DNA of 64,000 nt from Minisyncoccota bacterium (GTDB lineage: Bacteria; Patescibacteriota; Minisyncoccia; Phycocordibacterales; Phycocordibacteraceae): positions 69,619 through 133,618 of the forward strand of contig DASPLK010000001.1 in assembly GCA_035627595.1 (NCBI GenBank), written 5' to 3'. Below, piece by piece: positions 3,903 to 20,848 of the stretch. The notes under the pieces are model-generated. The model saw only the letters and a program-made list of their open reading frames with translations, was not told where the DNA came from and made no database searches. The first letter of the stretch is position 1. Each line of letters opens with the position of its first letter. The position numbers and the translations under genes were made by a program.

Positions 3903-5003
3903 CTACTGATTCATTGGCATCACAAGATATAGGAAGGACGCGTCTCCAGATCCGCGCATGACCAAAGGGCGGCCGATACCTGACGCTGAGAGAGTAAGAC
4001 TCTCGGCAGTAATCAGCGGGAGAGGAGCTGAGAGGTATCGATGGTTAAAGGAGAGCTCGATAGTGTCTCCGACAACTGACGCGGGGATAGATTCTGAAGT
4101 CTCACCAATATCATTGTTGCGTGCAGTAAGTGCTACCTGCTTCTCTTTAGAAGAAACTGAGAGGCGCACTTTTTGAAAAGTATCGGAGAAGATGGCAGTA
4201 CGGCGGAGTGCTGATTCAAGATCCTTACGGAGAAGTGTTGCCTCTGAAACGAATGCTTTAGGGATGATTTGTGCGTAATCAGGGTATGAGAGCGTAACAA
4301 GACGGGTTGTCACCATGCCAGAAGCCCAAGAAAACGCACATTGGTGCTCATCAACAAGCACTTCTACCGCATCATCTGGAAGCGTCTGAATGATGTCTAT
4401 AGCGTTCTTTGCTGGAATGAGTATGGAGAACGGATCCATCTTGCCGGAAACGGACAACTTTTTCTCCGCGAGGCGGAAGGAGTCGGTCGCGACCGCCTTA
4501 AGCGTACCCCCTTCAAATGAGAGCAGAATACTCGCGAGCTCAGGTCGAACAGTTGATGGAGATGCGCAGGACGCGACTGAGGTTACGAGAGATACCAGAG
4601 ATGCTCCTGGAAGCGAGAATTTGGCCTTAGGAGACTCAGGAAACGGGAGGGTGGGAAAATCCTCGAATGGAAGGGTCTTCATTTGGCTACGGCCCATCTG
4701 GGAGGTAATGACGACTGTCTCTCCCCCATACTCAAGAGACACAGTGCCTCCCCCAGTAAACGAGGAGGTCATCTCCCGAAGCGTGGCGGCTGGAAGCACA
4801 ACGACACCAGGCGCTTTGATATCGCCTGCGACTTTATAGTCGATACCAGTCTCAAGGTTAGTTGCACGTAGCTTTATACCGTCGTCGCCTGCGACTATGG
4901 CGATGCCGGAGAGAACTGGGAGTGTTGCTGAACGCCGTTCTGCGAACCTGGCGACTGCGCCCACGGCTTGGGCTAGTTCTTTCTTATCTACAGTTATGAT
5001 CAT
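3903..5003 (-). CDS. dnaN: DNA polymerase III beta sliding clamp
   Basis: 366 aa; N-terminus MIITVDKKELAQAVGAVARFAERRSATLPVLSGIAIVAGDDGIKLRATNLETGI; classic dnaA-dnaN synteny. Confidence 0.9.
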   Translation of the reverse strand: MIITVDKKELAQAVGAVARFAERRSATLPVLSGIAIVAGDDGIKLRATNLETGIDYKVAGDIKAPGVVVLPAATLREMTSSFTGGGTVSLEYGGETVVITSQMGRSQMKTLPFEDFPTLPFPESPKAKFSLPGASLVSLVTSVASCASPSTVRPELASILLSFEGGTLKAVATDSFRLAEKKLSVSGKMDPFSILIPAKNAIDIIQTLPDDAVEVLVDEHQCAFSWASGMVTTRLVTLSYPDYAQIIPKAFVSEATLLRKDLESALRRTAIFSDTFQKVRLSVSSKEKQVALTARNNDIGETSESIPASVVGDTIELSFNHRYLSAPLPLITAESLTLSASGIGRPLVMRGSGDASFLYLVMPMNQ

Positions 5004-7922: not shown

Positions 7923-9143
7923 TTATAGATCGTATGCCCACAGAGAGCCGTCGAGGCGGTTTCTGAAAGTGAGCACATCATTCCTGCCGTCTGTCTTGAG
8001 GCCGGTCATATCTATCGTCGCTTCTCCTGAGGACGTCGGATCGATGAGGAGCGTTGCTACACGTCCATCCATATCAATACGCCAGAGGCGATCAGAGAAC
8101 GCCACAACTCCCTGGTACCATTCATCCGGGAGAGATCCTGTAATACCACGTGGTATGCCGCAGAAGATGGCGCGGCTGTCTGAGGACCAAGTACACTTCT
8201 CTGCAAGAGTCGCGATCGGGAGCGCTGTACTGTCCCCTGTCGCTCTATCAAGCACTGACATACGCAATGTGCGCCCATCCATGTGGGTATAAAGTACAAG
8301 GCTACCCGATGGACTCGGGAGTATGGAAAGACCGCGCAACGGACCGAGTATTCTTGTGAATGCACCGTTCGCACCCACTGTAAACGCATATCCATCTAAT
8401 GAGGCGGACGCTTTCGTATGTGCCATGTACGGGCCATCGGAAAGATGTACGGTGAGGCTCGCAAGCGGTGAGGAGAAGAGTGTGCGAGAGTTTGTGCCAT
8501 CTGCATTTGATACAGTCCCTACAGATCCTGAAGTCGATGGCATCAGAGTGAAGAGGGTCGTCGTTCCAATAACACTCGCCTGGGAAAGGCCGCGTTCGAG
8601 GAAATATCCTCCTTCCCCAGCAGCAGGAAGTGCATACGTCTCTACGCGGTCCTCCCCATCACTACCAGAAAGGAACCGTGCGTACGCGAGCGAGCCATCT
8701 GAAAGCCAAGATGCTTCCTGTATGCCTGGCAGAGTACGGTTGGCGATACGCTCTAGGGTTCGGTCGTAGAAGCGGTATGCATAGATGTTTCCACTTGCAC
8801 GGTCGATGTAACGGATCTCAACATCCCCTGGCAACGTTTCAGGTGTGCCACTAGCTGTTTCGGCTGGCACTACCTGAGACGGTAGGTCATATATAGCCAT
8901 GCCAAGTGCGACCGGGCTCTCCGTAATGCGAATGAGACGCGGTGCGACTTCCTCCCCTGCTGGAACAGGACCGGTAGCGCCCTCGGTAGGGTCTGACGGA
9001 AGCGGAACATCATCTGCTTCATCGAATGAGACCCCATCTGAAGTTGAAAGAGAAGGCTCCTTAGGGCCAAAGATCATGTAGACACCAAACCCGATACCAG
9101 CCAGGAAGATGATACTTGCGACGATAATTAGTGCGCGCTTCAT
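7923..9143 (-). CDS. membrane-anchored secreted protein, TolB/PD40-like beta-propeller repeats (hypothetical; last gene of the T4SS-like operon)
   Basis: N-terminal TM MKRALIIVASIIFLAGIGFGVYMIF; repeated W/SxDG...LAY/LVLY motifs; 3 bp from the upstream gene. Confidence 0.4.
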   Translation of the reverse strand: MKRALIIVASIIFLAGIGFGVYMIFGPKEPSLSTSDGVSFDEADDVPLPSDPTEGATGPVPAGEEVAPRLIRITESPVALGMAIYDLPSQVVPAETASGTPETLPGDVEIRYIDRASGNIYAYRFYDRTLERIANRTLPGIQEASWLSDGSLAYARFLSGSDGEDRVETYALPAAGEGGYFLERGLSQASVIGTTTLFTLMPSTSGSVGTVSNADGTNSRTLFSSPLASLTVHLSDGPYMAHTKASASLDGYAFTVGANGAFTRILGPLRGLSILPSPSGSLVLYTHMDGRTLRMSVLDRATGDSTALPIATLAEKCTWSSDSRAIFCGIPRGITGSLPDEWYQGVVAFSDRLWRIDMDGRVATLLIDPTSSGEATIDMTGLKTDGRNDVLTFRNRLDGSLWAYDL

Positions 9144-9146
9144 ACG

Positions 9147-10034
9147 TTATTCTCTGGGGCACACTGGCTTATCACTCATCTGCGCCCATGTAGCAGATGG
9201 CTCGGGTGGCGTTACAGAACTACCGTTACAACGCTTCGTGAGAACGGTGCCGCTATACGTTCCGGCCAAAACGCGTGCTTCCTGCGCCTCACACTGCTGA
9301 AGCGTGTCGAAAGATTGGTAACTTGTAAGTCGGCATTGGTCCCCGCTCTCTTCGCTTGCTAAGTTCAGGTCGAGCTTCTGGGTGCTGATATTGAACTCTG
9401 CGCCACTTGGGGGCGGTGTAGGTGGTGTGTAGTACTTGCCATGCCCACAACATACCTGGCCCTCTCCACGCGTCCCGGAGCAACAGACTGCAGTCGCATC
9501 ACCAAGCGTGACCCATCCGCCGCCAAGTACGTCGTTGCACTGCCCTCCTTGTGGAACAGTCGCGTATTGGTACTGATCATGCGTATCGTTGGTGCAGATA
9601 GGGTTTTGCGAGGGGTCGCTATTTCCTGTTCCTCCTGATGGCGCCGGCGCAGTCTCAAGAAGGTCTGCACTGAAATTAAGCTCTAGAATCTTCGGATTGA
9701 TAATACCGAAAACGATTACGGGCGAGAGTACAAGGATGAGACCGAAGACGGCGCCCTGAAGGAGTGAACGTGCCTGTTCATTCTCAGAAACGCTTCCCTT
9801 GTTGGTCATAAATAGAATGCCGGCACGGATAATCTGGAGGACTGCGATAGCGGCTGCAACGCCAATACAAATCTTATACAACTGGTTGAGAAATGATGTG
9901 ATATTCGGCGCCTCCCCTGCAGTCTCGAGGCCAGGGATGCTGGTAAGTGGTGCGAATGAGTTGTCCGTCTGGCCAAACGCAGTAGCAGGAATCAAGATGA
10001 GTGCGAGTGCGAAGAAATGGATGAGGAGTGTCAT
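9147..10034 (-). CDS. VirB2/TrbC-like T4SS pilin candidate with a Cys-rich C-terminal extension
   Basis: signal peptide MTLLIHFFALALILIPATAFGQ, then two hydrophobic helices (LYKICIGVAAAIAVLQIIRAGILF; LLQGAVFGLILVLSPVIVFGII), the pilin-type topology; about 150 aa C-terminus with more than 12 Cys (CTND..CND..CCSG..CCGHG...). Confidence 0.4.
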   Translation of the reverse strand: MTLLIHFFALALILIPATAFGQTDNSFAPLTSIPGLETAGEAPNITSFLNQLYKICIGVAAAIAVLQIIRAGILFMTNKGSVSENEQARSLLQGAVFGLILVLSPVIVFGIINPKILELNFSADLLETAPAPSGGTGNSDPSQNPICTNDTHDQYQYATVPQGGQCNDVLGGGWVTLGDATAVCCSGTRGEGQVCCGHGKYYTPPTPPPSGAEFNISTQKLDLNLASEESGDQCRLTSYQSFDTLQQCEAQEARVLAGTYSGTVLTKRCNGSSVTPPEPSATWAQMSDKPVCPRE

Positions 10035-10036
10035 AG

Positions 10037-11011
10037 CTATAGTCCGAATATACCAAGAGCGCGGTCTTCACCGAAACGAACACTGAGCGACGTATCGGCT
10101 GACTGAAAATTCTCCTCATGCCGCGCCGTTGCTGATAGGAGTGCAGAACCCCGGCCGGAGCCAGTCGCGCGGACTGTTATATCGTCGTCTCCCCCACTCG
10201 CAACTGCGTTTACAGTCCAGGAGAGTATAGGACGCGCTGCGAAGTAGTATGGAACCATACGGAAGGAATCCTCCTCACCATTCATAGCAAACGTCCCACT
10301 GAACGCTCTATCAAATATCGGTCCTAGGAGTGGGTCGTTCCTATATATACGTACCAGCGGGTCTACGGGCGCAATAGCTGCAGTCGCCTGTGCCACGACT
10401 GCACTATCTTGCGTGGATACGGTCACCGAGACATTTGCGTCGCGGTATCTGACCGGCGCAGTCGCAGTGAGTGTTGAGCGTCCAATGCCGGAGGCGCTCT
10501 CAAGGATCTGATTTCCGAGCCGCCACGTGTAGACAAGATTCTCTGCTGCGACCGCGCCATTTGCAGTGCGGATATCGGGGATAGCGATGAGCCTGACCCT
10601 GCCCTCAGACGCTACGAGACTGCCGCCCTTATAAAATGGATGCGCGGTCGAGATGGGCTCGACGATGAGCGATACGTCGGCAGGCCGAACAGCGGTCTCC
10701 GCAGTATAGGTCTGACCGTTAGAGGTTACTGATACACGTATAGTTGAACGCTCCCCTGCCGCTCCAACCTGCGTGTATGCGGTGAGGACGCCTGTGCCCT
10801 CTTCTATAACGGTCCCATTGACCGAAACAGTCACTGTGCTCGCTGCCAGATTGAGTTGGGTGCTTCTCGGGGTGATTGCAATCGTCTGGTACGGCCGCGG
10901 GTACTGCGGCGAGATAGAAATAGTTATAGGAGCCGCTCCCACTTGAGCGTGCGCGGGAATGGCACCCGCTAATGCGGAGAGGAAAAGGACACTGAGAAGC
11001 ACGCGGAACAT
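10037..11011 (-). CDS. secreted hypothetical protein (signal peptide, beta-rich)
   Basis: MFRVLLSVLFLSALAGAIPAHAQV signal; no recognised motifs; embedded in the T4SS-like operon. Confidence 0.55.
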   Translation of the reverse strand: MFRVLLSVLFLSALAGAIPAHAQVGAAPITISISPQYPRPYQTIAITPRSTQLNLAASTVTVSVNGTVIEEGTGVLTAYTQVGAAGERSTIRVSVTSNGQTYTAETAVRPADVSLIVEPISTAHPFYKGGSLVASEGRVRLIAIPDIRTANGAVAAENLVYTWRLGNQILESASGIGRSTLTATAPVRYRDANVSVTVSTQDSAVVAQATAAIAPVDPLVRIYRNDPLLGPIFDRAFSGTFAMNGEEDSFRMVPYYFAARPILSWTVNAVASGGDDDITVRATGSGRGSALLSATARHEENFQSADTSLSVRFGEDRALGIFGL

Positions 11012-11062
11012 ATGCCTAGTATAGCTTGCATGTGAGCCACTGCAGAGAGTGGGCGTGGGTAT

Positions 11063-11488
11063 CTACGCAGCTTCCTCTTGCCTGCGGGTAGTGTAATTAT
11101 CATTAGCTGCTCTCAAACGGTTGTCATTCGCTGCCTGTCGCGCTGCTTTGTTCTTAGCTGCAAGCTTCTGCGCCTTCTCTTTGTCCTCTTTGCGGGTTAG
11201 GTAGACTACCCATATCACCGCCAGAAGTTGCGTAGGAAACATATTTATTAAGGGAAACGACTCGATAATACCTGCGCCTCCCATCGCCCCAAATTTCTTG
11301 AGCGCATTTTTCCCTGACATGAACCGCACTCCGAGTATGGCAAGCCATAGCCACATAACAAATATGCCGAACCATTCCCAAATGGTGCCCAGTATCGGCA
11401 CCATGCCAGCAAAGAAGCCTATGCCCTGGAACGTGGCTGAAGTGGCTATAAGGAAGAACGCGGTCCCGCGACTAATGCGCTCGTGCAT
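11063..11488 (-). CDS. small polytopic membrane protein with a basic C-terminus (hypothetical, T4SS-associated)
   Basis: 3-4 predicted TM helices, then a K/R-rich tail; operon context. Confidence 0.45.
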   Translation of the reverse strand: MHERISRGTAFFLIATSATFQGIGFFAGMVPILGTIWEWFGIFVMWLWLAILGVRFMSGKNALKKFGAMGGAGIIESFPLINMFPTQLLAVIWVVYLTRKEDKEKAQKLAAKNKAARQAANDNRLRAANDNYTTRRQEEAA

Positions 11489-11497
11489 ACTCCCCTA

Positions 11498-13309
11498 CTA
11501 TACTCCTTCCATTCGTTCCTTCTCCTTTCGAATCGCAAGAAGCTGCGACGGATCCGAGGTAATGATCTGATCCTCGGTATAGGAGGCAACAATCTTTATG
11601 GCGACGTGCTTCATACCCGCAAAGAAGAGTCCTTCTCCGACACCAGACTCGAGGAGGAGGTACTTCTCTTCATCGGTAAGATTGAAAGTCTCTTTGAGAA
11701 TGTCGATCGTTGTTGGCGACTGCTTTAGGAGGAGCTGTATGGATGAGTTTGTAAGTATTGGCCGGCCATACGGAGAGCGGAGGAAGTCCTCTACATCTTG
11801 GGTAATTGTGGCGAGTCCCAAATAGTACTTACGCCCACGCTTAGCCATAGAGTAGAGGAAGGATGCGGTATCATCCGATTTCATCATCCACCAAGCCTCG
11901 TCGATAACGAGGAGGCGCCTCTTCAACTCTTGGCGGACTGCGTTCCAGATGTAGTGCGTAATGATATACATTGCGACCGGCTTCAGGTCGTCCTCCATAT
12001 CACGCACAGAAAAAACGATGAGCTGTTTGTTGATATCGACGTTCGTCGGGCGGTTGAGGAATCCTGACCAAGTGCCCCTCGTGTACTTTGAAAGGCGCTG
12101 TACCAATGACTCGCTTCCTTCCATACCAGACAGCACACTTTCAAAATCAGACAGCAGGGGCGGCTCCATGCCAGTGAAGTCCGCGTCACCGGTTATATCC
12201 TTGAGTGCGTATGTCTCTGTTATCGCGCGGTCGACGATGGCATCCTCTTCAGGGCTAAGGCCGCCAAGCATGATGCGGAAAAGACCAACGAGGTTAATGA
12301 TGTTCGAGCGAAGTATGTCAGAGGGCTCCTCGTCGTCCTTGACTGCTGGCAGATCAAACGGATTGATATGGTGCTCGGAAGAGAGCGAGATATTAAATGT
12401 GCGGCCACCTGTCGCCTGCGCGAGGTACTCGTATTCTCGCTCCGGATCGATGACTATGACGTCCGTCTCAAACATGAGTGAGCGCAATACTTCGAGCTTC
12501 ACGGCGTAGCTCTTTCCAGAGCCGGACTTTGCGAACACGACCGAGTTGTAGTTCTCAAGCGAGAATCGATCGAAGAGCACCAGGGAGGCATTGTGGCGGT
12601 TGATGCCGTAGAGAATTCCCCTATCTGAGGTAAGGTCGAATGAGACGAATGGGAAGAGCGAGGATAGAGGCGAGGAATTGAGCTTCGAGTGCGAATTCAA
12701 TTCATCAACAGCGAGCGGAAGCGTAGAGCGGTAACCCTGCTCCTGCTGGAACAGAGCCGGCTTTGTATAGACGAGCTTCGCATCAAGAATGCCGCGTATC
12801 TCTGCCTCCACCTTATCGAGATCTTCCTTCGTACTTCCGTACACAGTTATATAAAGACCCACCTCAAAGAGACGCTCCTGTGCTTGCTGGAGCTGGTCGC
12901 GCAACTCTTCGAGATCTCGGTATGCGGTATCAAGCATAGGGTCGCGCACAAAGCCCTTCTCTTCCCTTTCAGCAATCTGGCTCTGCACTTCCGCAACCTT
13001 CTTTTGAAAGTTTCGCATTACAAGACTCGTATCAAGTGGATGTATATGGATGGATACATCAAGTTGCTTGGAGAGATTGATGATGGGGGTAAACCAGCTA
13101 TCGGACAGGAAGCGCGGATACGAAATCGTATAAAAGGTACGCGAGAACTTCTCTCCTATCTCAAGTTCCCGTGAGCCGACCTTAAGCGCTGCAGGTGCGA
13201 TGGTGTCTGCGAGGTCGAGCTCGCCTGCGGCATAGATATCAGCTGGCAGGACCGGTGTTATTTCCGGTCCATCTTGATTTTTCTTGCTAAAGAAGTCGAG
13301 TAGGGCCAT
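11498..13309 (-). CDS. virB4: VirB4/TrbE/CagE-family T4SS ATPase (C-terminal 603 aa including the NTPase domain)
   Basis: Walker A VVFAKSGSGKSYAV, Walker B LLVIDEAWWMM, VirB4 N-domain-like pattern near MALLDFF...; same frame as the upstream ORF, separated only by TAA. Confidence 0.85.
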   Translation of the reverse strand: MALLDFFSKKNQDGPEITPVLPADIYAAGELDLADTIAPAALKVGSRELEIGEKFSRTFYTISYPRFLSDSWFTPIINLSKQLDVSIHIHPLDTSLVMRNFQKKVAEVQSQIAEREEKGFVRDPMLDTAYRDLEELRDQLQQAQERLFEVGLYITVYGSTKEDLDKVEAEIRGILDAKLVYTKPALFQQEQGYRSTLPLAVDELNSHSKLNSSPLSSLFPFVSFDLTSDRGILYGINRHNASLVLFDRFSLENYNSVVFAKSGSGKSYAVKLEVLRSLMFETDVIVIDPEREYEYLAQATGGRTFNISLSSEHHINPFDLPAVKDDEEPSDILRSNIINLVGLFRIMLGGLSPEEDAIVDRAITETYALKDITGDADFTGMEPPLLSDFESVLSGMEGSESLVQRLSKYTRGTWSGFLNRPTNVDINKQLIVFSVRDMEDDLKPVAMYIITHYIWNAVRQELKRRLLVIDEAWWMMKSDDTASFLYSMAKRGRKYYLGLATITQDVEDFLRSPYGRPILTNSSIQLLLKQSPTTIDILKETFNLTDEEKYLLLESGVGEGLFFAGMKHVAIKIVASYTEDQIITSDPSQLLAIRKEKERMEGV

Positions 13310-13312
13310 ATG

Positions 13313-13945
13313 TTATGCGAAACGGATAGGGTTTTCATGCTCGCTCGGATTGAAAGAGCGGTATAGAAGCTCGATGATCTCCTCGGTACCAAGCGGCACG
13401 GCACGGACGCCGCTTCCCTGAAGCGCGCTTCCTACGAGCGCCATGCGCTGCTCAAGCTGCACACGAAATTGCACGAACTCATCCGTTCCTTCGCCAGTAG
13501 GCGCTGCACCGGCCTCCTTCTTTATGAACGGCAGTGCGCCAGAGACGGCAGTAACAGCAGCTGGGCTGTAGGGTACGACGACATAGAAGAGCTTCGTCAT
13601 AATGTCTGTTCCTTCTATGAATGAACTAATGAACTGCATGTACTCTCGAAGCTGGATGCGCATAAGCTCGGAGGACTGCTTGTCTGCGCGTTCCTCAAGA
13701 AGTGCGAGGTAAGGACGGATATCTATCTTTCTAGACTGTACGACTATTTCGACCGAGAAATCGAGCGTGTTGAGGAAGTTTTGGAAACCGCCTATGATAG
13801 CGCGCTGCTCATCCTCAGACTTAAGTGCGAAGTTCACTGATGAGCACATGAGAATACCGCGGTATCCTCCATCCTTAAGGATTACTACGCCGTTACGTAT
13901 TTCCTTAACCGGTACGAACTCTTGAGCTGCGCGTGCTGCGGGCAT
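13313..13945 (-). CDS. VirB4 N-terminal-like fragment (210 aa), separated from the ATPase ORF by a single in-frame TAA
   Basis: VPVKEIRNGVVILKDGGYRGILMCSSVNFALKSEDEQRAIIGGFQNFLNTLDFSVEIVVQS resembles the VirB4/TraC N-terminus; stop TAA at 13313-13315, then CAT, then ATG 13307-13309 in frame; combined about 813 aa, a typical VirB4 length. Confidence 0.5.
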   Translation of the reverse strand: MPAARAAQEFVPVKEIRNGVVILKDGGYRGILMCSSVNFALKSEDEQRAIIGGFQNFLNTLDFSVEIVVQSRKIDIRPYLALLEERADKQSSELMRIQLREYMQFISSFIEGTDIMTKLFYVVVPYSPAAVTAVSGALPFIKKEAGAAPTGEGTDEFVQFRVQLEQRMALVGSALQGSGVRAVPLGTEEIIELLYRSFNPSEHENPIRFA

Positions 13946-13947
13946 GA

Positions 13948-14361
13948 TTAAGAGGCGTTACTATCCTTAATATCCAAGGACCATGCGAGCTCATGGAGCT
14001 TGTTCTGCGAAAGCCCAAGCTTCTGTCTCGTTTCGACCGCAGGCGTAGGCGGGACAGGCATAGTCTGCACCTGAGTCTTCTTCTCTACCCTTTTCCAGAG
14101 GTATAGGCGGCTTCCAAGGTAATAATTAAAACCCGACTCGAGCACGTCGAGGAACGGTCGATTGTTTACCTTGTAAAACGCGAGCGCAAGCGTGAAAATC
14201 GCGAGCGGAATAGCAAGCGCGATGCCAATGATACGTGGGAGATAGAGTACGAGCACGGCGCAGAGACCAAAACCGCCAGCAACGTAAACAAACTGCTTGA
14301 TAGAAAGCGGGCCGAATACTTTCTCTTCGACCTCAATGAACTGTGGTACTTGGTACTCCAT
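13948..14361 (-). CDS. PrgI/VirB3-like small membrane protein
   Basis: 137 aa, two TM helices (FVYVAGGFGLCAVLVLYL; IGIALAIPLAIFTLALAFY), directly upstream of VirB4 as in Gram-positive-type T4SS. Confidence 0.5.
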   Translation of the reverse strand: MEYQVPQFIEVEEKVFGPLSIKQFVYVAGGFGLCAVLVLYLPRIIGIALAIPLAIFTLALAFYKVNNRPFLDVLESGFNYYLGSRLYLWKRVEKKTQVQTMPVPPTPAVETRQKLGLSQNKLHELAWSLDIKDSNAS

Positions 14362-14407
14362 TGCCTACATAGTATAGCAACACCCCGCAAGAAAGCGGGG
14401 TGTGCGT

Positions 14408-15127
14408 TTAAAATGGTTCGCGATACGGATCTGCCGCGTAGTCTTTCGTGAGCGGTGTGCGCTGCCCTTCTTCAGTCGGTAGGTTTGGCGGTGGCGGTGG
14501 CGGTTCCCACGCGGTGACTGGAGGAGGCGCTGGACGTTCGATCACCGGCTCCGGAACAGGCGGTGGCGGTGGCGGTGGCGCGGGAGGCTGTTGTGGAGCT
14601 TGGTACTGCAGCGGTGGCTGGGTGGTCATGTATGGCTGCGGCACAGCGGTAATTGATACCGGAACCCAGTATGTCTGTTGCTGAGCGCCTGGAATTGGTG
14701 GCGTATATACAGGCTGCGGCTGTTGCGGGACCTGATACTGAGGTGGTGCCTCTATTTGGGAAGGTGGAGAAACAGGACGTGGTGGTTCGGGGCGTCTCTC
14801 CGATTGCTCCTGCTCTTTTCGACGCAAGGGCTTGAATACCATCTCATTCACATCAGTAGTGAGTCCATTGATTGAAGGCTCAGGGATACCGGCTTCACGT
14901 AGAGAATCTCTAAACTCATCTGGTGTCTTTACTCCAAGCAGCATTTGAAGATACGCGCGTTCGAAATCCCCAGCCTGGTCAGCATGAAGACCGTATTTCT
15001 GCATGAGTTCGAGCGCAACACGGTCGCGCTCAGGGCTCATAACGAATTCCCGGATCGGTTCAGGTATCCGCAGCAGCGCCGTGGCAACTGCGTCATCGAC
15101 ATTGCTAAGCTGCTGAGGTTCATCCAT
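14408..15127 (-). CDS. proline-rich hypothetical protein (helical N-domain plus about 130 aa of P/Q-rich low-complexity sequence)
   Basis: ...APPPPPPPVPEPVIERPAPPPVTAWEPPPPPP; no TM segment; operon member. Confidence 0.5.
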   Translation of the reverse strand: MDEPQQLSNVDDAVATALLRIPEPIREFVMSPERDRVALELMQKYGLHADQAGDFERAYLQMLLGVKTPDEFRDSLREAGIPEPSINGLTTDVNEMVFKPLRRKEQEQSERRPEPPRPVSPPSQIEAPPQYQVPQQPQPVYTPPIPGAQQQTYWVPVSITAVPQPYMTTQPPLQYQAPQQPPAPPPPPPPVPEPVIERPAPPPVTAWEPPPPPPNLPTEEGQRTPLTKDYAADPYREPF

Positions 15128-15154
15128 ACCTCTATTGTATACGATGTGTGATCA

Positions 15155-17608
15155 CTAGTGACCACCACCGTGCCCATCGTCCTTCTTTGCGGCACCATGA
15201 CTGTCACCCGACGCCCCGTTCTTCTGCTGAGCCTTGAGTGCGTCCGCAAGTTTCTCTATCTCCCCCTTATTAATATTCTTAATAATCTTCTCCTTCGCAT
15301 GATGGTCGGCGTCCGGGCCTATGGTCTGACCGTAGGCAAATTTCGCTGTCGCATTAACGAGCCCGCCCTCTTTGCCCGGCATTTCACCCATTCGCTCAGC
15401 GTATACGCGCTGCGGCGCTGACTTGAGATCTTTCTTCGCAGCCTCCTGACCTGCGATCCACTGCTTCTGGCGTGCTTCCTCTGCAGCGCGCTCCTTATTC
15501 TGCTCTTCAGTCAGGCGCTTATACTTCTCGTTTAGATTGCTGATAGCAGTCTCAGCGGCGCTCACCGCAGCTTGATTGCCACGCGCTCGCGCATCCGCAG
15601 CTTCCTTCTCGCGCTCCTTAATTTCATCCCGTATTGGTGTGCGCTCGCTCCGATGGCGTACATCCATATCATTAAGAACCTCGGCGTCCTTTTGCTTCTT
15701 TGTAGCTATCTGCGTGTCAATTTCCTTTATTATTGTAGTCTCCTCCGCCGTGTTCTTTAGGTCCTTAGAGTACTTTTCGCGTTCCTCTTCAGCATGATGA
15801 ACGATTCCTGCGTATCCACCCTTCTTCGCGTCGCCAAGTTTTAGGTGCGCAGCACCAGCAGCGCCACTCACAATCTTAGAGGCGCGAGGATCAAAGCTTG
15901 ATTTAGCACCTGAATCAAGACCGCCAACAACCATCTTGCCAAGACCGCTACGGCCGAATTCGGTATGCCTGAGTTTGTCAGCCTGTTTGTACATGGCACG
16001 CCCGGCTGTTCTCCTACCTACAAACCCCATACCGCCCATTACCACGCCACTCGCTTTACTGGTCGCGAAGCTCGCGCCCATAGCTCCAAGGCTACTTGCG
16101 ATCATTAAAGAACCAACCATAAACCCGATTATGAGGAAGAAGAGAATGAATATGCCGCCCGTACCAGCACCTCCAGCAGCAAACGCCTGAACAAGGGATG
16201 CGCCTGTAGTATTAAATGTACTTTGAGCCCCCTCCATTATCTTCAGTCCAACAAAAAGCATAAGAAGGAATAATGGAGCAAAGAACGCTTGGGAGATGAG
16301 CTTGTTCCACCACATCTTGGAATACTCTTCGAACTGCGGGATTGCTGTTGCGGCGAACCCAAGAGGAGATATCACCAAAAGGAACATAAGGGTTACTGCA
16401 CGGATAATGAGCATGATGGAGGCGGCAATAAATACCACCATCATGACAATGATGAGTATGAGAAGGCCTGTGTAGGTTAGGAGCATCCCAAGTCCGTCGG
16501 TAGCAGTCCAAATGGCGCCCAGGCTTCTGAACCCTTCAAATGAGAATATGCTGCCCATCCCAGCAGCCGCAAGAATCTTTCCTGAGATACCATCACCAAC
16601 GCACTCTGCCGGCGTGCCGCCGCTTGCAATAGTTCCTGCATCCCCACCGCAGTTCACATTTCCAGCTTCTGTATAGAACGCTGCGCTAAAAACGTTTGCA
16701 ACATCCACAATTGCAGACGACACAAGAAGGCTGAAGTTGATAAGAATGGCAAAGATAAGGAGGCGTGGCAGTGCCTTTCCGACACTGAAGTGTCCAACGT
16801 TAAGAATGGTCTGAATACCGATGAATATAAATCCAAAGAGAAGAAGTATGTTGCCAAGATCTCGAAGCACGCTCCATGCGACGAGAAGACCAGGAGAGTT
16901 ACCGAAGTAAGTGCTGTATTGGAAGACTGTGACAAGCACAATCCAGTTGAACAGCATGCCAAACACACCAAGGAGTGCGCCAAGTACTGAGACAAGAATC
17001 CAAAGTACAGATGCGCCAAGCTTACCTATGATGCTGCCGAGACAATCAGACAAGTTTCCCCCGATTAAACTACAACTGTCAGTTCCCGCAGCGCCATCTA
17101 CCTGTTGAACAGATTGAGTGCCACCATTCCCATCTGGAACTTCCGTGACGGTTACATTTGCAATATCAGACTGCCGACCAATCTCAGTGCCATCGGGTAG
17201 TACAACCTCTGCAACAATTTTCTGGGAAGCGAGATCATCCTCAAACCAAAGCGTATATCGATTATCACTAAATGTGACCCTACAATTCTCTAGCGAGTCT
17301 CGATTCGTGACTCGATAGGTACAGATAGAGGTAATGGTGACCGCCGGATTAGTCCCTAGCTCTAAGCCTTGATGAGTACAATTAGGCTCATCGTTCGGGG
17401 TGTTACAAAGGACAGCTTCAAACTGCTGCTGGGTAAAACCTACAGCATTGGGTCTTGCCTGTTCTTTAGGGAAAGAGGGCCACGTGGGTAGCGCAGTCTG
17501 CGCCTGAGACGCGCTTGGAAGGAACGCAAACCCACTAACGAGAACCGCAGCGGTCGCGAACGCGACCCCTGCTTTTCCTAGCCAACCTTTGAAGCGCGAT
17601 ACCCGCAT
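15155..17608 (-). CDS. VirB6/TrbL-like polytopic membrane protein with N-terminal extracellular domain and long charged/coiled-coil C-terminus
   Basis: signal peptide, about 200 aa ectodomain, at least 6 TM helices (LGASVLWILVSVLGALLGVFGMLF...), then a K/E/A-rich tail of about 300 aa ending GGGH. Confidence 0.55.
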   Translation of the reverse strand: MRVSRFKGWLGKAGVAFATAAVLVSGFAFLPSASQAQTALPTWPSFPKEQARPNAVGFTQQQFEAVLCNTPNDEPNCTHQGLELGTNPAVTITSICTYRVTNRDSLENCRVTFSDNRYTLWFEDDLASQKIVAEVVLPDGTEIGRQSDIANVTVTEVPDGNGGTQSVQQVDGAAGTDSCSLIGGNLSDCLGSIIGKLGASVLWILVSVLGALLGVFGMLFNWIVLVTVFQYSTYFGNSPGLLVAWSVLRDLGNILLLFGFIFIGIQTILNVGHFSVGKALPRLLIFAILINFSLLVSSAIVDVANVFSAAFYTEAGNVNCGGDAGTIASGGTPAECVGDGISGKILAAAGMGSIFSFEGFRSLGAIWTATDGLGMLLTYTGLLILIIVMMVVFIAASIMLIIRAVTLMFLLVISPLGFAATAIPQFEEYSKMWWNKLISQAFFAPLFLLMLFVGLKIMEGAQSTFNTTGASLVQAFAAGGAGTGGIFILFFLIIGFMVGSLMIASSLGAMGASFATSKASGVVMGGMGFVGRRTAGRAMYKQADKLRHTEFGRSGLGKMVVGGLDSGAKSSFDPRASKIVSGAAGAAHLKLGDAKKGGYAGIVHHAEEEREKYSKDLKNTAEETTIIKEIDTQIATKKQKDAEVLNDMDVRHRSERTPIRDEIKEREKEAADARARGNQAAVSAAETAISNLNEKYKRLTEEQNKERAAEEARQKQWIAGQEAAKKDLKSAPQRVYAERMGEMPGKEGGLVNATAKFAYGQTIGPDADHHAKEKIIKNINKGEIEKLADALKAQQKNGASGDSHGAAKKDDGHGGGH

Positions 17609-17612
17609 AGCG

Positions 17613-19001
17613 CTATGTCCTACCGCACAGTTTTGCCTTTTCCGTCATCTGCATATATAGAGAGTCTCCTCCCTCACCGCTTGTGCGGCTTTCAGTTTGT
17701 GAGCGTGCAAGGTCGCTCGCAGTCGGCATCGTATTAGCCATGAGTTGCTGGTACTCAGTTGAGACCTCCTCAAGTGCTGCGATCTGGTTGCCGCCTGCGG
17801 CATTATTTGCCGCAGCAAGCTTGGTGGTGAGAGAGTCGATGCCTGCAACCGCTGCGTCGGCGCGTGCAATCGCTGCGGCCGACTCGGTAAGTACAGCTTG
17901 AACTTCGGAGTCGTTGGTACAACTTGCCGCGGCCTGCGCTGCGCCCTGAATCTTCTGCCAATTAGACTTATGCGTCTCCACTTGGCCGCGCTGGTTGCGT
18001 AGGGTCTGCGTGAAGGTTGCGTTCGCCCCCTGCGCGTTTGTCTGGTCAGAACTTGATGCGCGATCAATGTATGAAGAGCCGCCGCCGGAACTAGGCTGCG
18101 TAAGTCCGCCAAGTCCGCTGCCGCCAAGAATGTTCGAAGTAAGCTGTGCAAGAAGTGCGCCGACGATCTCATTGAACTCATCAGCAAGACCGAGCTGGTC
18201 AAGCTGGGATCCGAGGGTCTTCTCGAGTTGGCCCTCAATGACGGCGCCCGGGGTCTGAATCTCTCCGCCCGCACACTCACTTTCTGCGCCAGAGAGATCT
18301 ACAGTTTCATCGCCTGCTGATGAACTGGTAGTACACTCACCGCGCCAGGAAAGGAATCCCCTACCCCATTCAAGCTCGGTGCGACGTTGATCCTCTGCAC
18401 TTGAGACACGGCTGCCAAGCTCATGCTGTGCTTCATGGAGCGCACCAATAGGATTGTTCTGTGGATTTCTCCATGCCTCAATCCAAGCGTCCCATCCGCC
18501 CTTAGAGAAATCACCCGCAAGAAATGCGTTCGGATCTTCTGACACCTCATTAAGAGTGAAGCGGTTTGTGTTGAAATAAGAGCCTGAGCCGGTCGAGCGG
18601 AAGTAATCATCACGCACTGCCTGCACAATATCGTCCCTGAATGGTGAATCTATCTCGTTCCGGTCGCGCAACTCCTCAAAGAAATCGTCGGCAACACGGT
18701 CCCCTACCCTAAGCAAGTTACGGTTGAGGTCAGTTACATATGCAGGAGAGCCGTCAAAGCCTGAATTGATCCAGTTAACAGTGCTCTTGGTGACGGATTG
18801 GAGCGCAGACCGTGCCATGGTCCACGCGATCGCATCGAGACCACCTTCCTTTAGCATGTCCCAGCCCTGAGATGCCGCTGTTATGGTGTTCTGGATGAGG
18901 TTTATCGGGTCTTGAACGATAAACTGCGCATGCGTCGTGCGCGGTACGCTCGTAAAGAGAAGCGCTGCTACAAGAAGAAGTGCAAGTGGTGTGCGGATCA
19001 T
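17613..19001 (-). CDS. secreted hypothetical protein (462 aa), T4SS-associated
   Basis: signal peptide MIRTPLALLLVAALLFTSVPRTTHAQ; Gly/Ser-rich linker; C-terminal A/Q-rich helical region; 4 nt from the VirB6-like gene. Confidence 0.55.
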   Translation of the reverse strand: MIRTPLALLLVAALLFTSVPRTTHAQFIVQDPINLIQNTITAASQGWDMLKEGGLDAIAWTMARSALQSVTKSTVNWINSGFDGSPAYVTDLNRNLLRVGDRVADDFFEELRDRNEIDSPFRDDIVQAVRDDYFRSTGSGSYFNTNRFTLNEVSEDPNAFLAGDFSKGGWDAWIEAWRNPQNNPIGALHEAQHELGSRVSSAEDQRRTELEWGRGFLSWRGECTTSSSAGDETVDLSGAESECAGGEIQTPGAVIEGQLEKTLGSQLDQLGLADEFNEIVGALLAQLTSNILGGSGLGGLTQPSSGGGSSYIDRASSSDQTNAQGANATFTQTLRNQRGQVETHKSNWQKIQGAAQAAASCTNDSEVQAVLTESAAAIARADAAVAGIDSLTTKLAAANNAAGGNQIAALEEVSTEYQQLMANTMPTASDLARSQTESRTSGEGGDSLYMQMTEKAKLCGRT

Positions 19002-20026
19002 AGGCTTGGTACGGCAGCCGCCGCATCTTTAGCGCCCTTTACGAAGAAGTATCCGGTCGCACCCTGACCGATAGAGATGCCGTTGCCAGAGAAAAGTGTA
19101 TTAAGTTCTGCATACGCGCGCACCATCTGATCTGCTGCGCTTTTGTACTCGCTCATACCGAGCATGCCACGAAGTGGATCATTTTCTACGCTTGTCATGT
19201 TCTCGACGACAGTGCCCATGTATGCGATTGCATTTACAAAATTGAGGTGTGCCGACTGCGCTTCGTTTGGTACAGATATTTGAATGAGTGCAGCTGCAAT
19301 ATTTGTGTACGCACGAGAAATAGCACGCACTTGATTCATCGCACCCTCGTCTCCCTTCTGAACTGCTTCGGTGAAGTAGAAAAGTTCATTCTGGTCAGTG
19401 TCGACCGTGTTTTGTGTAAATGCTTCTTCCGCAGCGATAGCATATGCGCGGAGTGCCTCCTGTCCTGAACCTGAGACACGCACGCTTCCAAGTGAGTATG
19501 CCTTTACTGCTCGCTGCTTCGCGGCAAGGTCTGCGAGCGCATCCTGCATGAACGCATCTATCTCCTCTGCGGTCGGCGGGACGCCGCTTCGTGAGTTCAT
19601 GTAGTTTGTGAACAGGTCACGCGCAAATGCTCCGGTAACGGTATTGGCATCTGCATCAACGCCAGGGACGGTCACTTCGCCAGCAAGACCTGAAAGGTCG
19701 GTGCGGAACTTCGGCTCAAGGAGCCCTTGAGAGGAAGCTTCCCCATCGGTCATCTCAAGGCTGAACGAGTGCGCGTTATCAGGATCGGTTCCGTACAGTG
19801 ATTCCTGCCAATCCGGCAAGCCATCACTATCTGTGTCGCGCGAAGAGAACGCACGGAGAAGTTCCTCGGTTGACTCAGCGCCTGCGAGCTTTGAGGAAAA
19901 AATGGAAGGGCCCGAGAGCGCGTACGCGAGCGTCATCAATGCTCCCGTTATCACGAGCGAGCCGATGATGCGCAGGGTCCGCGTAGAAAGTGGAAGAGTA
20001 GGCACTATATATATGGTATCACGCAC
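18998..20026 (-). CDS. bitopic membrane protein (N-in TM plus about 290 aa ectodomain), possible VirB8-like component
   Basis: TM LRIIGSLVITGALMTLAYAL; the start at 20026 is GTG and the exact start is unsure; overlaps the next gene by ATGA. Confidence 0.45.
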   Translation of the reverse strand: MRDTIYIVPTLPLSTRTLRIIGSLVITGALMTLAYALSGPSIFSSKLAGAESTEELLRAFSSRDTDSDGLPDWQESLYGTDPDNAHSFSLEMTDGEASSQGLLEPKFRTDLSGLAGEVTVPGVDADANTVTGAFARDLFTNYMNSRSGVPPTAEEIDAFMQDALADLAAKQRAVKAYSLGSVRVSGSGQEALRAYAIAAEEAFTQNTVDTDQNELFYFTEAVQKGDEGAMNQVRAISRAYTNIAAALIQISVPNEAQSAHLNFVNAIAYMGTVVENMTSVENDPLRGMLGMSEYKSAADQMVRAYAELNTLFSGNGISIGQGATGYFFVKGAKDAAAAVPSL

Positions 20027-20062: not shown

Positions 20063-20848
20063 TCAATCCTTGAGCGACTCCGCAAGTGCGGTCCATCCAG
20101 CAAGCGGTACATCTTCTGGACGGATATCCTCGTGAAGCAGGGCTGCGGCAAAGGCTTCCTGAATATCCCCTTTCTCCGCGACTGCCTCGAGGTTCTTCAT
20201 AAGCCGCTTCCTTTTATGTGCGAATCCAGCGCGGAGAATAGCAAAAAAGCGTGCTTCCTGGTTGGGGCTTTGAAACGTCGCAGTGATATCTCGTACCGAA
20301 AGTACGGCAGAATCTACCTTTGGTGCAGGCACAAAGGCGCCTTTCGGGACGGTGAACTCATACTTAGGCGTGCCATATGCCTTCACGGATAGAGATAAAA
20401 GGCTCTCTTTCTCGCTTCTCGCGACCCGCTCGGCAACCTCCTTCTGAACGAGGAGTGTCATGGATGAGGGTTTATGGGTGGTTGTTAAGAACTGGCGGAC
20501 GATCTCACCAGTGATGTAGTACGGGATATTGGCGACCAGTAGATAGGGGCCGTCTATAGTACTTGGGTCAAACTTCCGTACGTCTATATGTATAAGGACC
20601 AGCTTTCCGCTAGCTATCTCTTCCGCAAAGGTAGCTTCTAACCGCGGGATGAGTTCAGCATCGGTCTCAACCGCATATACCTTCCCTGCCTTTGCTAGGA
20701 GCTCACGTGTCAGTACGCCAGTGCCTGGTCCGATCTCGAGCACGGTATCTCTTTCAGTTACATTTGCCGCAAGCACAATACGCTCACTCGTCTGGCGGTG
20801 CATTAGAAAATGTTGACCGAGCCCTTTCTTTGCAGAGAGATGCATCAT
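20063..20848 (-). CDS. rsmA: 16S rRNA (adenine1518/1519-N6)-dimethyltransferase RsmA/KsgA
   Basis: GQHFL motif, SAM-binding EIGPGTGVLT, NIPY motif. Confidence 0.85.
   Translation of the reverse strand: MMHLSAKKGLGQHFLMHRQTSERIVLAANVTERDTVLEIGPGTGVLTRELLAKAGKVYAVETDAELIPRLEATFAEEIASGKLVLIHIDVRKFDPSTIDGPYLLVANIPYYITGEIVRQFLTTTHKPSSMTLLVQKEVAERVARSEKESLLSLSVKAYGTPKYEFTVPKGAFVPAPKVDSAVLSVRDITATFQSPNQEARFFAILRAGFAHKRKRLMKNLEAVAEKGDIQEAFAAALLHEDIRPEDVPLAGWTALAESLKD

Follow-up and report, generated by a model that had tools for sequence, protein, structure and literature searches.

A TraC-like gene and a shortened virB4 gene lie back to back in a Patescibacteria type IV secretion cluster

Two open reading frames (ORFs) on the minus strand of a Minisyncoccota contig encode proteins of 210 and 603 amino acids that together resemble a single VirB4 ATPase, and they are parted by a stop codon and one further triplet. 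This raises the question of whether a virB4 gene has been broken here, in the organism or in the assembly, whether the stop is read through, or whether the locus holds two genes. We examined the question in the 64,000-nucleotide stretch of DNA around the pair (the window), labelling the 210-aa protein A and the 603-aa protein B. The reading that we favour, with a probability of about 0.93, is that A and B come from two real, separately translated genes that lie back to back in a chromosomal type IV secretion system (T4SS) cluster of Patescibacteria (Paceibacteria).

The junction and its gene cluster

The first-pass annotation had reported that the two ORFs share a frame and are separated by TAA, CAT and ATG in turn, which the minus strand bears out: across the junction it reads ATC CGT TTC GCA TAA CAT ATG GCC CTA CTC, that is, I R F A, stop, H M A L L (Table 1). 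The same annotation presented the locus as a VirB4 split by a single in-frame TAA. The TAA is indeed in frame, but the emphasis is misleading, as the frame common to the two ORFs is incidental. The ten gene junctions of this packed minus-strand cluster have spacers of -4, 4, 27, 46, 2, 3, 9, 51, 2 and 3 nt, and because half of them (5/10) keep the frame, a shared frame at this one is unremarkable and within chance expectation. The arrangement of TAA, 3 nt and ATG also recurs between the pilin-like and 406-aa genes (9143-9149). Judged by its spacing, TAA CAT ATG is probably a tight operon junction of the translationally coupled type. A scan for promoters and terminators around the 210-aa/603-aa junction returned nothing on the coding strand.

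The genes flanking the pair place it in a T4SS cluster. On the minus strand the order is prgI(virB3-like)-trsD-like-virB4, with spacers of 2 and 3 nt. Further cluster genes lie upstream (14408..20026) and downstream (7923..11488), all on the same strand. The 817-aa upstream protein is a possible VirB6 analogue, given its position in the cluster and its hydrophobic sequence. Downstream, the pilin-like gene matches PF18895 T4SS_pilin (E 1.9e-5) and PF04956 TrbC (E 6e-4), both under the curated cut-offs. With dnaN and dnaA, a replication-origin context adjoins the cluster, and the same context is found in loci L081, L082 and L083.

Table 1. Features at and around the trsD-like/virB4 junction, in window coordinates
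Feature	Position	Strand	Basis
trsD-like gene, 210-aa soluble protein (A), Pfam PF26593 TraC-like	13313..13945	-	NCBIfam, PF26593, homologues, AF2 model
virB4 gene, 603-aa ATPase (B): second half of N-terminal domain and C-terminal P-loop domain	11498..13309	-	NF045971, PF19044
Gene junction: TAA 13313-13315, 3-nt spacer CAT 13310-13312, virB4 ATG 13307-13309	13307..13315	-	sequence
prgI/virB3-like, 137-aa membrane protein, 2-nt spacer to trsD-like	13948..14361	-	PF12666 PrgI, E 7.1e-9, 36.5 bits vs cut-off 27
239-aa Pro-rich protein	14408-15127	-	ORF, no significant Pfam match
817-aa protein, possible VirB6 analogue	15155-17608	-	ORF, no significant Pfam match
462-aa protein	17613-19001	-	ORF, no significant Pfam match
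342-aa protein	18998-20026	-	ORF, no significant Pfam match
141-aa hydrophobic protein	11063-11488	-	ORF
324-aa protein	10037-11011	-	ORF
295-aa VirB2/T4SS-pilin-like protein	9147-10034	-	PF18895, PF04956
406-aa protein	7923-9143	-	ORF
dnaN	3903-5003	-	Pfam
dnaA	5224-6570	-	Pfam
ksgA	20063-20848

Domains of the two products

B is a member of the CD1110 VirB4 family (NF045971; 386.9 bits against a cut-off of 325), covering model positions 184-733 of 752, and of PF19044 P-loop_TraG (E 1.9e-24; 86.5 bits against a cut-off of 25.8). Its Walker A motif (GSGKS, residues 263-267, 12509-12523) and Walker B motif (VIDEAW, residues 468-473, 11891-11908) are intact. Residues 112-559 of B align to TrwK/VirB4 287-741, and residues 229-585 align to the C-terminal domain of Thermoanaerobacter VirB4 (4AG5). 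Alone, B does not hold a complete N-terminal domain in one polypeptide; CD1110 positions 2-104 come from A.

A is the equivalent of the opening part of the VirB4 N-terminal domain, about 200 residues that make up its first half. The first-pass annotation had called the upstream ORF VirB4/TraC N-terminal-like on the strength of a peptide, VILKDGGYRGILMCSS...NTLDF, which is found at residues 21-63 of A, and both model and fold matches agree with that call. Three full-length VirB4/TraC models put A before B without overlap. One of the checks proposed in that annotation was whether a VirB4 HMM alignment extends into the upstream ORF, and it does, with CD1110 positions 2-104 matched by A and 184-733 by B. 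On the mycoplasma Mbov_0397 VirB4 model, A occupies positions 105-233 and B 293-893, and weak TraC_F_IV matches are likewise collinear (A at model positions 134-176, B at 276-374).

At the level of families, A belongs to PF26593: the identical 210-aa protein of locus L083 carries a precomputed match (E <= 1e-5 class), and precomputed annotations place PF26593 on all of the best 120 A homologues as well. These homologues are 203-226 aa long and 68-90% identical to A, and come from Paceibacterota/Patescibacteria where named. Our local Pfam scan of A, made with a copy that probably does not include the PF26593 model, found no family at E <= 0.1, and at E <= 10 gave weak PF11130 matches alone. Against the TrsD/TraD model NF041427, A aligns to positions 16-130 of 201 with 18.8 bits (E 1.1e-3), which is remote homology only, given a curated cut-off of 200 bits. 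In the literature discussed below, TrsD assignments (PMC12102498) rest on the CONJScan TrsD profile, whereas A was scored here against NCBIfam NF041427.

Structure prediction points the same way. The AlphaFold (AF2) model of A has moderate confidence (pLDDT 69.6, pTM 0.58), and in a fold search of the PDB its top 14 matches were R388 TrwK/VirB4 chains (E 1e-4 to 8e-3), with nothing else significant. Searching PDB sequences with a profile of the A family gave nothing meaningful, and VirB4 was found by the fold search alone.

A different view of A would make it an independent paralogue, an extra copy of the ATPase's own N-terminal subdomain. The predicted secondary-structure order of the A-like domain and of the next subdomain does look similar, but a profile-profile comparison (hhalign) of the A family with the N-terminal region of B finds nothing (probability <1%), which rules out A as an internal duplicate of that subdomain. 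The full-length VirB4 models, moreover, put A where B has no coverage, and the fused homologue described next aligns over the whole of TrwK. We consider a paralogous origin very improbable and read A as the opening portion of the VirB4 N-terminal domain that B lacks.

The strongest evidence at hand that A and B act as one VirB4 comes from a natural fusion. Among the best 150 representatives of A at 50% identity, 149 are not fused, some of them carrying long low-complexity tails; the sole fused one, P0206, has 797 aa. When P0206 was used as a query, 118 of its 120 best matches were 775-807 aa long and combined PF26593 with ATPase domains, and those that were named belong to Candidatus Colwellbacteria, so that a whole clade has the fused form of about 790 aa. 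The other two matches, P0408 and P0504, are of about 600 aa. P0408 (600 aa, 88% identical to P0206) was considered as a possible recent fission and rejected as an artefact, because its contig has a stretch of N inside what is a fused gene; this finding concerns P0408. P0206 residues 1-213 are matched by A at 41% identity, and P0206 residues 225-796 by B residues 28-598 at 57% identity. The model of P0206 (pLDDT 71.4, pTM 0.50, moderate confidence) spans the full TrwK/VirB4 length with E 5e-27 over 850-886 columns. The earlier suggestion that the two ORFs together amount to a full-length VirB4 is thus upheld by their collinearity on VirB4 models, on P0206 and on TrwK. B also begins with a conserved extension of about 27 residues (MALLDF...) that the fused form does not have.

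The junction in related genomes

A recent nonsense mutation that left a formerly one-piece virB4 as a pseudogene was the first of the explanations listed in the first-pass annotation. It would account for two ORFs in frame with TAA and CAT alone between them, and one-piece versions of about 790 aa do exist in another clade of Paceibacteria. However, the comparison with relatives speaks strongly against it. We fetched 80 related genome loci, of which 78 still hold the downstream gene. In 78 of 78 a stop is followed by the same conserved start, ATG-GCN-CTN-CTN-GAT (M-A-L-L-D); none (0/78) has an uninterrupted gene. Together with the window these loci give 79 junctions, with spacers of 1 nt (11 junctions), 2 nt (15), 3 nt (32) and 4-6 nt (8), the rest longer, up to 719 nt. 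In frame are 40 of the 79, and 39 are out of frame. The annotation had also suggested looking at orthologous loci for the same stop: a stop stands at the same boundary in every one of the 78, not always in frame and not always TAA.

The products themselves look intact as well. Both are full-length and conserved, the best 120 B homologues (clusters) all being 588-617 aa long and 84-100% identical to B, and the N-terminal extension of B has no counterpart in the fused form. An alignment of 27 A sequences has 80 invariant columns. In comparisons with relatives, dN ranges over 0.14-0.24 in A and 0.06-0.13 in B; dS is saturated for most pairs, and numerical dN/dS values are therefore not given. By these sequence measures both A and B are under strong constraint, with purifying selection evident, where a pseudogene would be expected to show relaxed constraint. 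Taken with the conserved lengths, the 78 of 78 junctions and the changes of spacer and frame described below, this excludes a recent nonsense mutation, to which we assign next to no probability.

The same evidence bears on a false stop introduced by sequencing or assembly, which could be suspected in a metagenome-assembled genome. The architecture is repeated in 78 independently assembled genomes with differing stops and spacers, and an artefact at this site is accordingly refuted, its likelihood being negligible. The sequence also recurs in contig k141_478039 of ENA assembly ERZ27252484, where a 15.8-kb match to the window has zero mismatches and the 210-aa and 603-aa products are annotated as separate genes; this contig may derive from the same underlying assembly, so it does not give the base calls independent confirmation.

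Readthrough of the stop, whether programmed or leaky at a low level, would yield a functional fused VirB4 of 815 aa wherever the junction is in frame. In its favour, the Colwellbacteria fusion is evidently functional, and the trsD-virB4 junction is in frame in 40/79 cases (51%) against 15/80 (19%) for the neighbouring prgI-trsD junction. The naive binomial p for the in-frame excess is 0.001 and ignores kinship; the loci share ancestry, and one large subclade has the 3-nt spacer in common. Yet at 39 of the 79 junctions the second gene is out of frame or lies beyond a long spacer, so that readthrough cannot be a requirement. Neither frame nor stop context is kept in the relatives. All three stop codons end A (TAA in 63, TAG in 13 and TGA in 3, the window included), TAA being the usual one, and the codon in the spacer varies (CAT, CGT, TCT, CCT, ATA and others). 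On a neighbour-joining tree of 76 taxa at least 37 changes of spacer length and at least 28 changes of frame are required, and the nearest relatives of the window have spacers of 3, 5, 6 and 6 nt. No conserved structure was seen downstream of the junction. Required readthrough is thereby excluded, and even an occasional fused product has only a slight chance of being the explanation. Of the four explanations that the first-pass annotation had listed, the evidence supports the remaining one, a two-piece VirB4 whose second piece starts with its own ATG.

Known systems and a proposed assembly

The two-gene VirB4 layout of the window is ordinary and conserved, and it has been published before. TrsD was described as a remote homologue of the VirB4 N terminus that is abundant next to virB4 in Patescibacteria, with 2,272 homologues, 1,664 of them associated with virB4 (Quinonero-Coronel et al. 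2025, PMC12102498). The window resembles the pairs reported there, including that of Ca. Southlakia epibionticum ML1, in having a TrsD homologue beside virB4. It also has the features of the Patescibacteria TrsD-VirB4 T4SS clusters of that study: the order prgI-A-B, PrgI/VirB3 and VirB2-like pilin genes, dnaA nearby and no relaxase in the vicinity. Paceibacteria T4SS clusters lie near dnaA, dnaN and ksgA (PMC12102498), as does the one in the window, and nothing substantive differs between them. The fused clade and the anatomy of the junction over about 80 genomes are the only small additions to published knowledge: TrsD-VirB4 fusions and junction anatomy have no mention in the main text of PMC12102498, TrsD has none in the main text of Guglielmini et al. 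2014 (PMC4027160), and the FEMS 2025 review of T4SS (PMC12857230) mentions neither TrsD nor a split VirB4. For annotation, the consequence is that a 210-aa 'hypothetical protein' and a 603-aa 'DUF87 protein' at such a locus are to be read as two subunits of one VirB4 and not as a disrupted gene. The Patescibacteria T4SS is of real interest, as the single strain tested is reported to need it for epibiotic growth; the TrsD homologue is listed as essential in Ca. Southlakia epibionticum (PMC12102498).

The separate-gene prototype is TrsD of plasmid pGO1 (PMC12102498). Like TrsD/TrsE of the staphylococcal plasmids pGO1/pSK41 and TraD/TraE of pIP501 (MPF-FATA), the window has a gene for a protein of about 200 aa beside that for a shortened VirB4 ATPase. 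Those plasmid systems, however, serve conjugation and include a relaxase and a coupling protein; the cluster in the window is instead chromosomal, close to the origin and without a relaxase in view, and the similarity is as remote as the NF041427 score indicates. One-piece VirB4 proteins (TrwK of R388, CD1110 of CTn2 and the Colwellbacteria form) have the same domains in the same order as A and B joined. Unlike them, the polypeptide in the window is divided inside the N-terminal domain, at about TrwK residue ~175 as extrapolated from the B-TrwK alignment, and its second part has an N-terminal extension of its own. The VirB3-VirB4 fusions of some conjugative systems offer a further parallel, in that VirB3, the VirB4 N-terminal domain and the VirB4 C-terminal domain are modules that can be joined or parted with their order kept, although the direction there is the opposite one, fusion and not fission. 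No VirB3-VirB4 fusions were found in Patescibacteria (PMC12102498).

We propose the following for the pair. The first gene supplies a TrsD/TraC-like product that corresponds to the N-terminal domain of a one-piece VirB4 over its first ~200 residues, and the second the remainder of that domain and the P-loop motor, each from its own start codon. Ribosomes that end the first gene probably restart on the second across the 3-nt gap, as the spacing suggests. The small protein would then bind the ATPase in trans and rebuild a complete VirB4 N-terminal domain, so that A may bind both B and PrgI as part of a two-subunit VirB4; the Colwellbacteria fusion and the analogy with R388 are the support for this. 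[quoted passage not shown]

A minor point concerns the in-frame excess at trsD-virB4, which could date from a fission or a fusion event at one stop codon. The in-frame TAA-NNN-ATG junction, the modal form, might in that case preserve how the two genes arose or were re-joined, a suggestion that we regard as unlikely on balance. With it goes the idea that a separate N-terminal module could allow a stoichiometry independent of the motor, since in R388 VirB3 is bound only by the six central VirB4 subunits of the twelve. If the junction were such a relic, either VirB4 was cut by one ancient nonsense mutation beside a usable ATG, or the Colwellbacteria re-fused the genes by stop loss; in both cases the Paceibacteria would provide a natural comparison of fused and split forms.

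Spacing at the two junctions

The spacer between the trsD-like gene, which encodes the TraC-like module, and virB4 was most often 3 nt long and in frame (32 of 79 junctions, the window at 13307-13315 included), and 40 of the 79 junctions were in frame overall, these being raw counts that ignore shared ancestry. By contrast, the junction between prgI and the trsD-like gene (13943-13950 in the window; both junctions were compared over L001-L080 from related genomes) had a modal spacer of 2 nt and was in frame in only 15 of 80 cases, again counted without regard to shared ancestry. Five relatives carried long gaps before virB4 (L014, 102 nt; L015, 142 nt; L037, 92 nt; L043, 55 nt; L080, 719 nt), in some of which an ATG lay directly 3' of the trsD-like stop; such spacers may represent small inserted ORFs or elements.

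One-piece proteins and tailed homologues

Among the best 120 matches, P0206 and 117 further protein clusters combined the TraC-like module and VirB4 in a single protein of about 790 aa. These one-piece proteins constitute a whole clade, the named members of which are Candidatus Colwellbacteria, and their genes share the prgI ... dnaA context with the two-gene form. The main text of the 2025 study of Patescibacteria T4SSs (Quinonero-Coronel et al., PMC12102498) makes no mention of TrsD-VirB4 fusions. The apparent split of P0408, a protein 88% identical to the fused clade, proved to be an artefact, since its fused gene is broken by a stretch of Ns in the contig sequence. In other lineages, the TrsD-like proteins P0172, P0216 and P0227 bear long, low-complexity C-terminal tails rich in Pro, Gln and Ala, reaching total lengths of 406-443 aa.

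Further proteins and repeated elements of the cluster

Neither the 239-aa protein, whose C-terminal half is very proline-rich, nor the 817-aa protein matched Pfam. The 817-aa protein, a candidate VirB6 analogue, has extended hydrophobic segments and, at its C terminus, a charged region in which Lys, Glu and Ala are abundant. The VirB2/T4SS-pilin-like protein carries at its C terminus a long extension rich in Cys; for a monoderm-type T4SS this is unusual, although pilins of the VirB2 type have been reported in Patescibacteria.

The 64 kb contain just two copies of the motif GCTATACTA, each lying within the T4SS cluster and a few bases 5' of a start codon, that of prgI and that of a 324-aa gene. 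Two matches were reached in 7 of 100 shuffles. Together with the G+C-rich hairpin, the copies may act as promoters or terminators inside the cluster, and the leaders would then be very short.

Positions of the cluster features and of two homologues from further loci
Feature	Position	Strand	Remark
239-aa and 817-aa proteins	14408-17608	-	just upstream of prgI
Hairpin ACACCCCGC-TTTCTT-GCGGGGTGT	14380-14403	-	precedes first GCTATACTA copy
GCTATACTA, two copies	14370-14403 region; 11017-11025	-	
VirB2/T4SS-pilin-like protein	9147-10034	-	Pfam scores under cut-offs
P0206	L082:544-2937		fused TraC-like/VirB4
P0408	L081:1282-3470		600-aa VirB4, seemingly split
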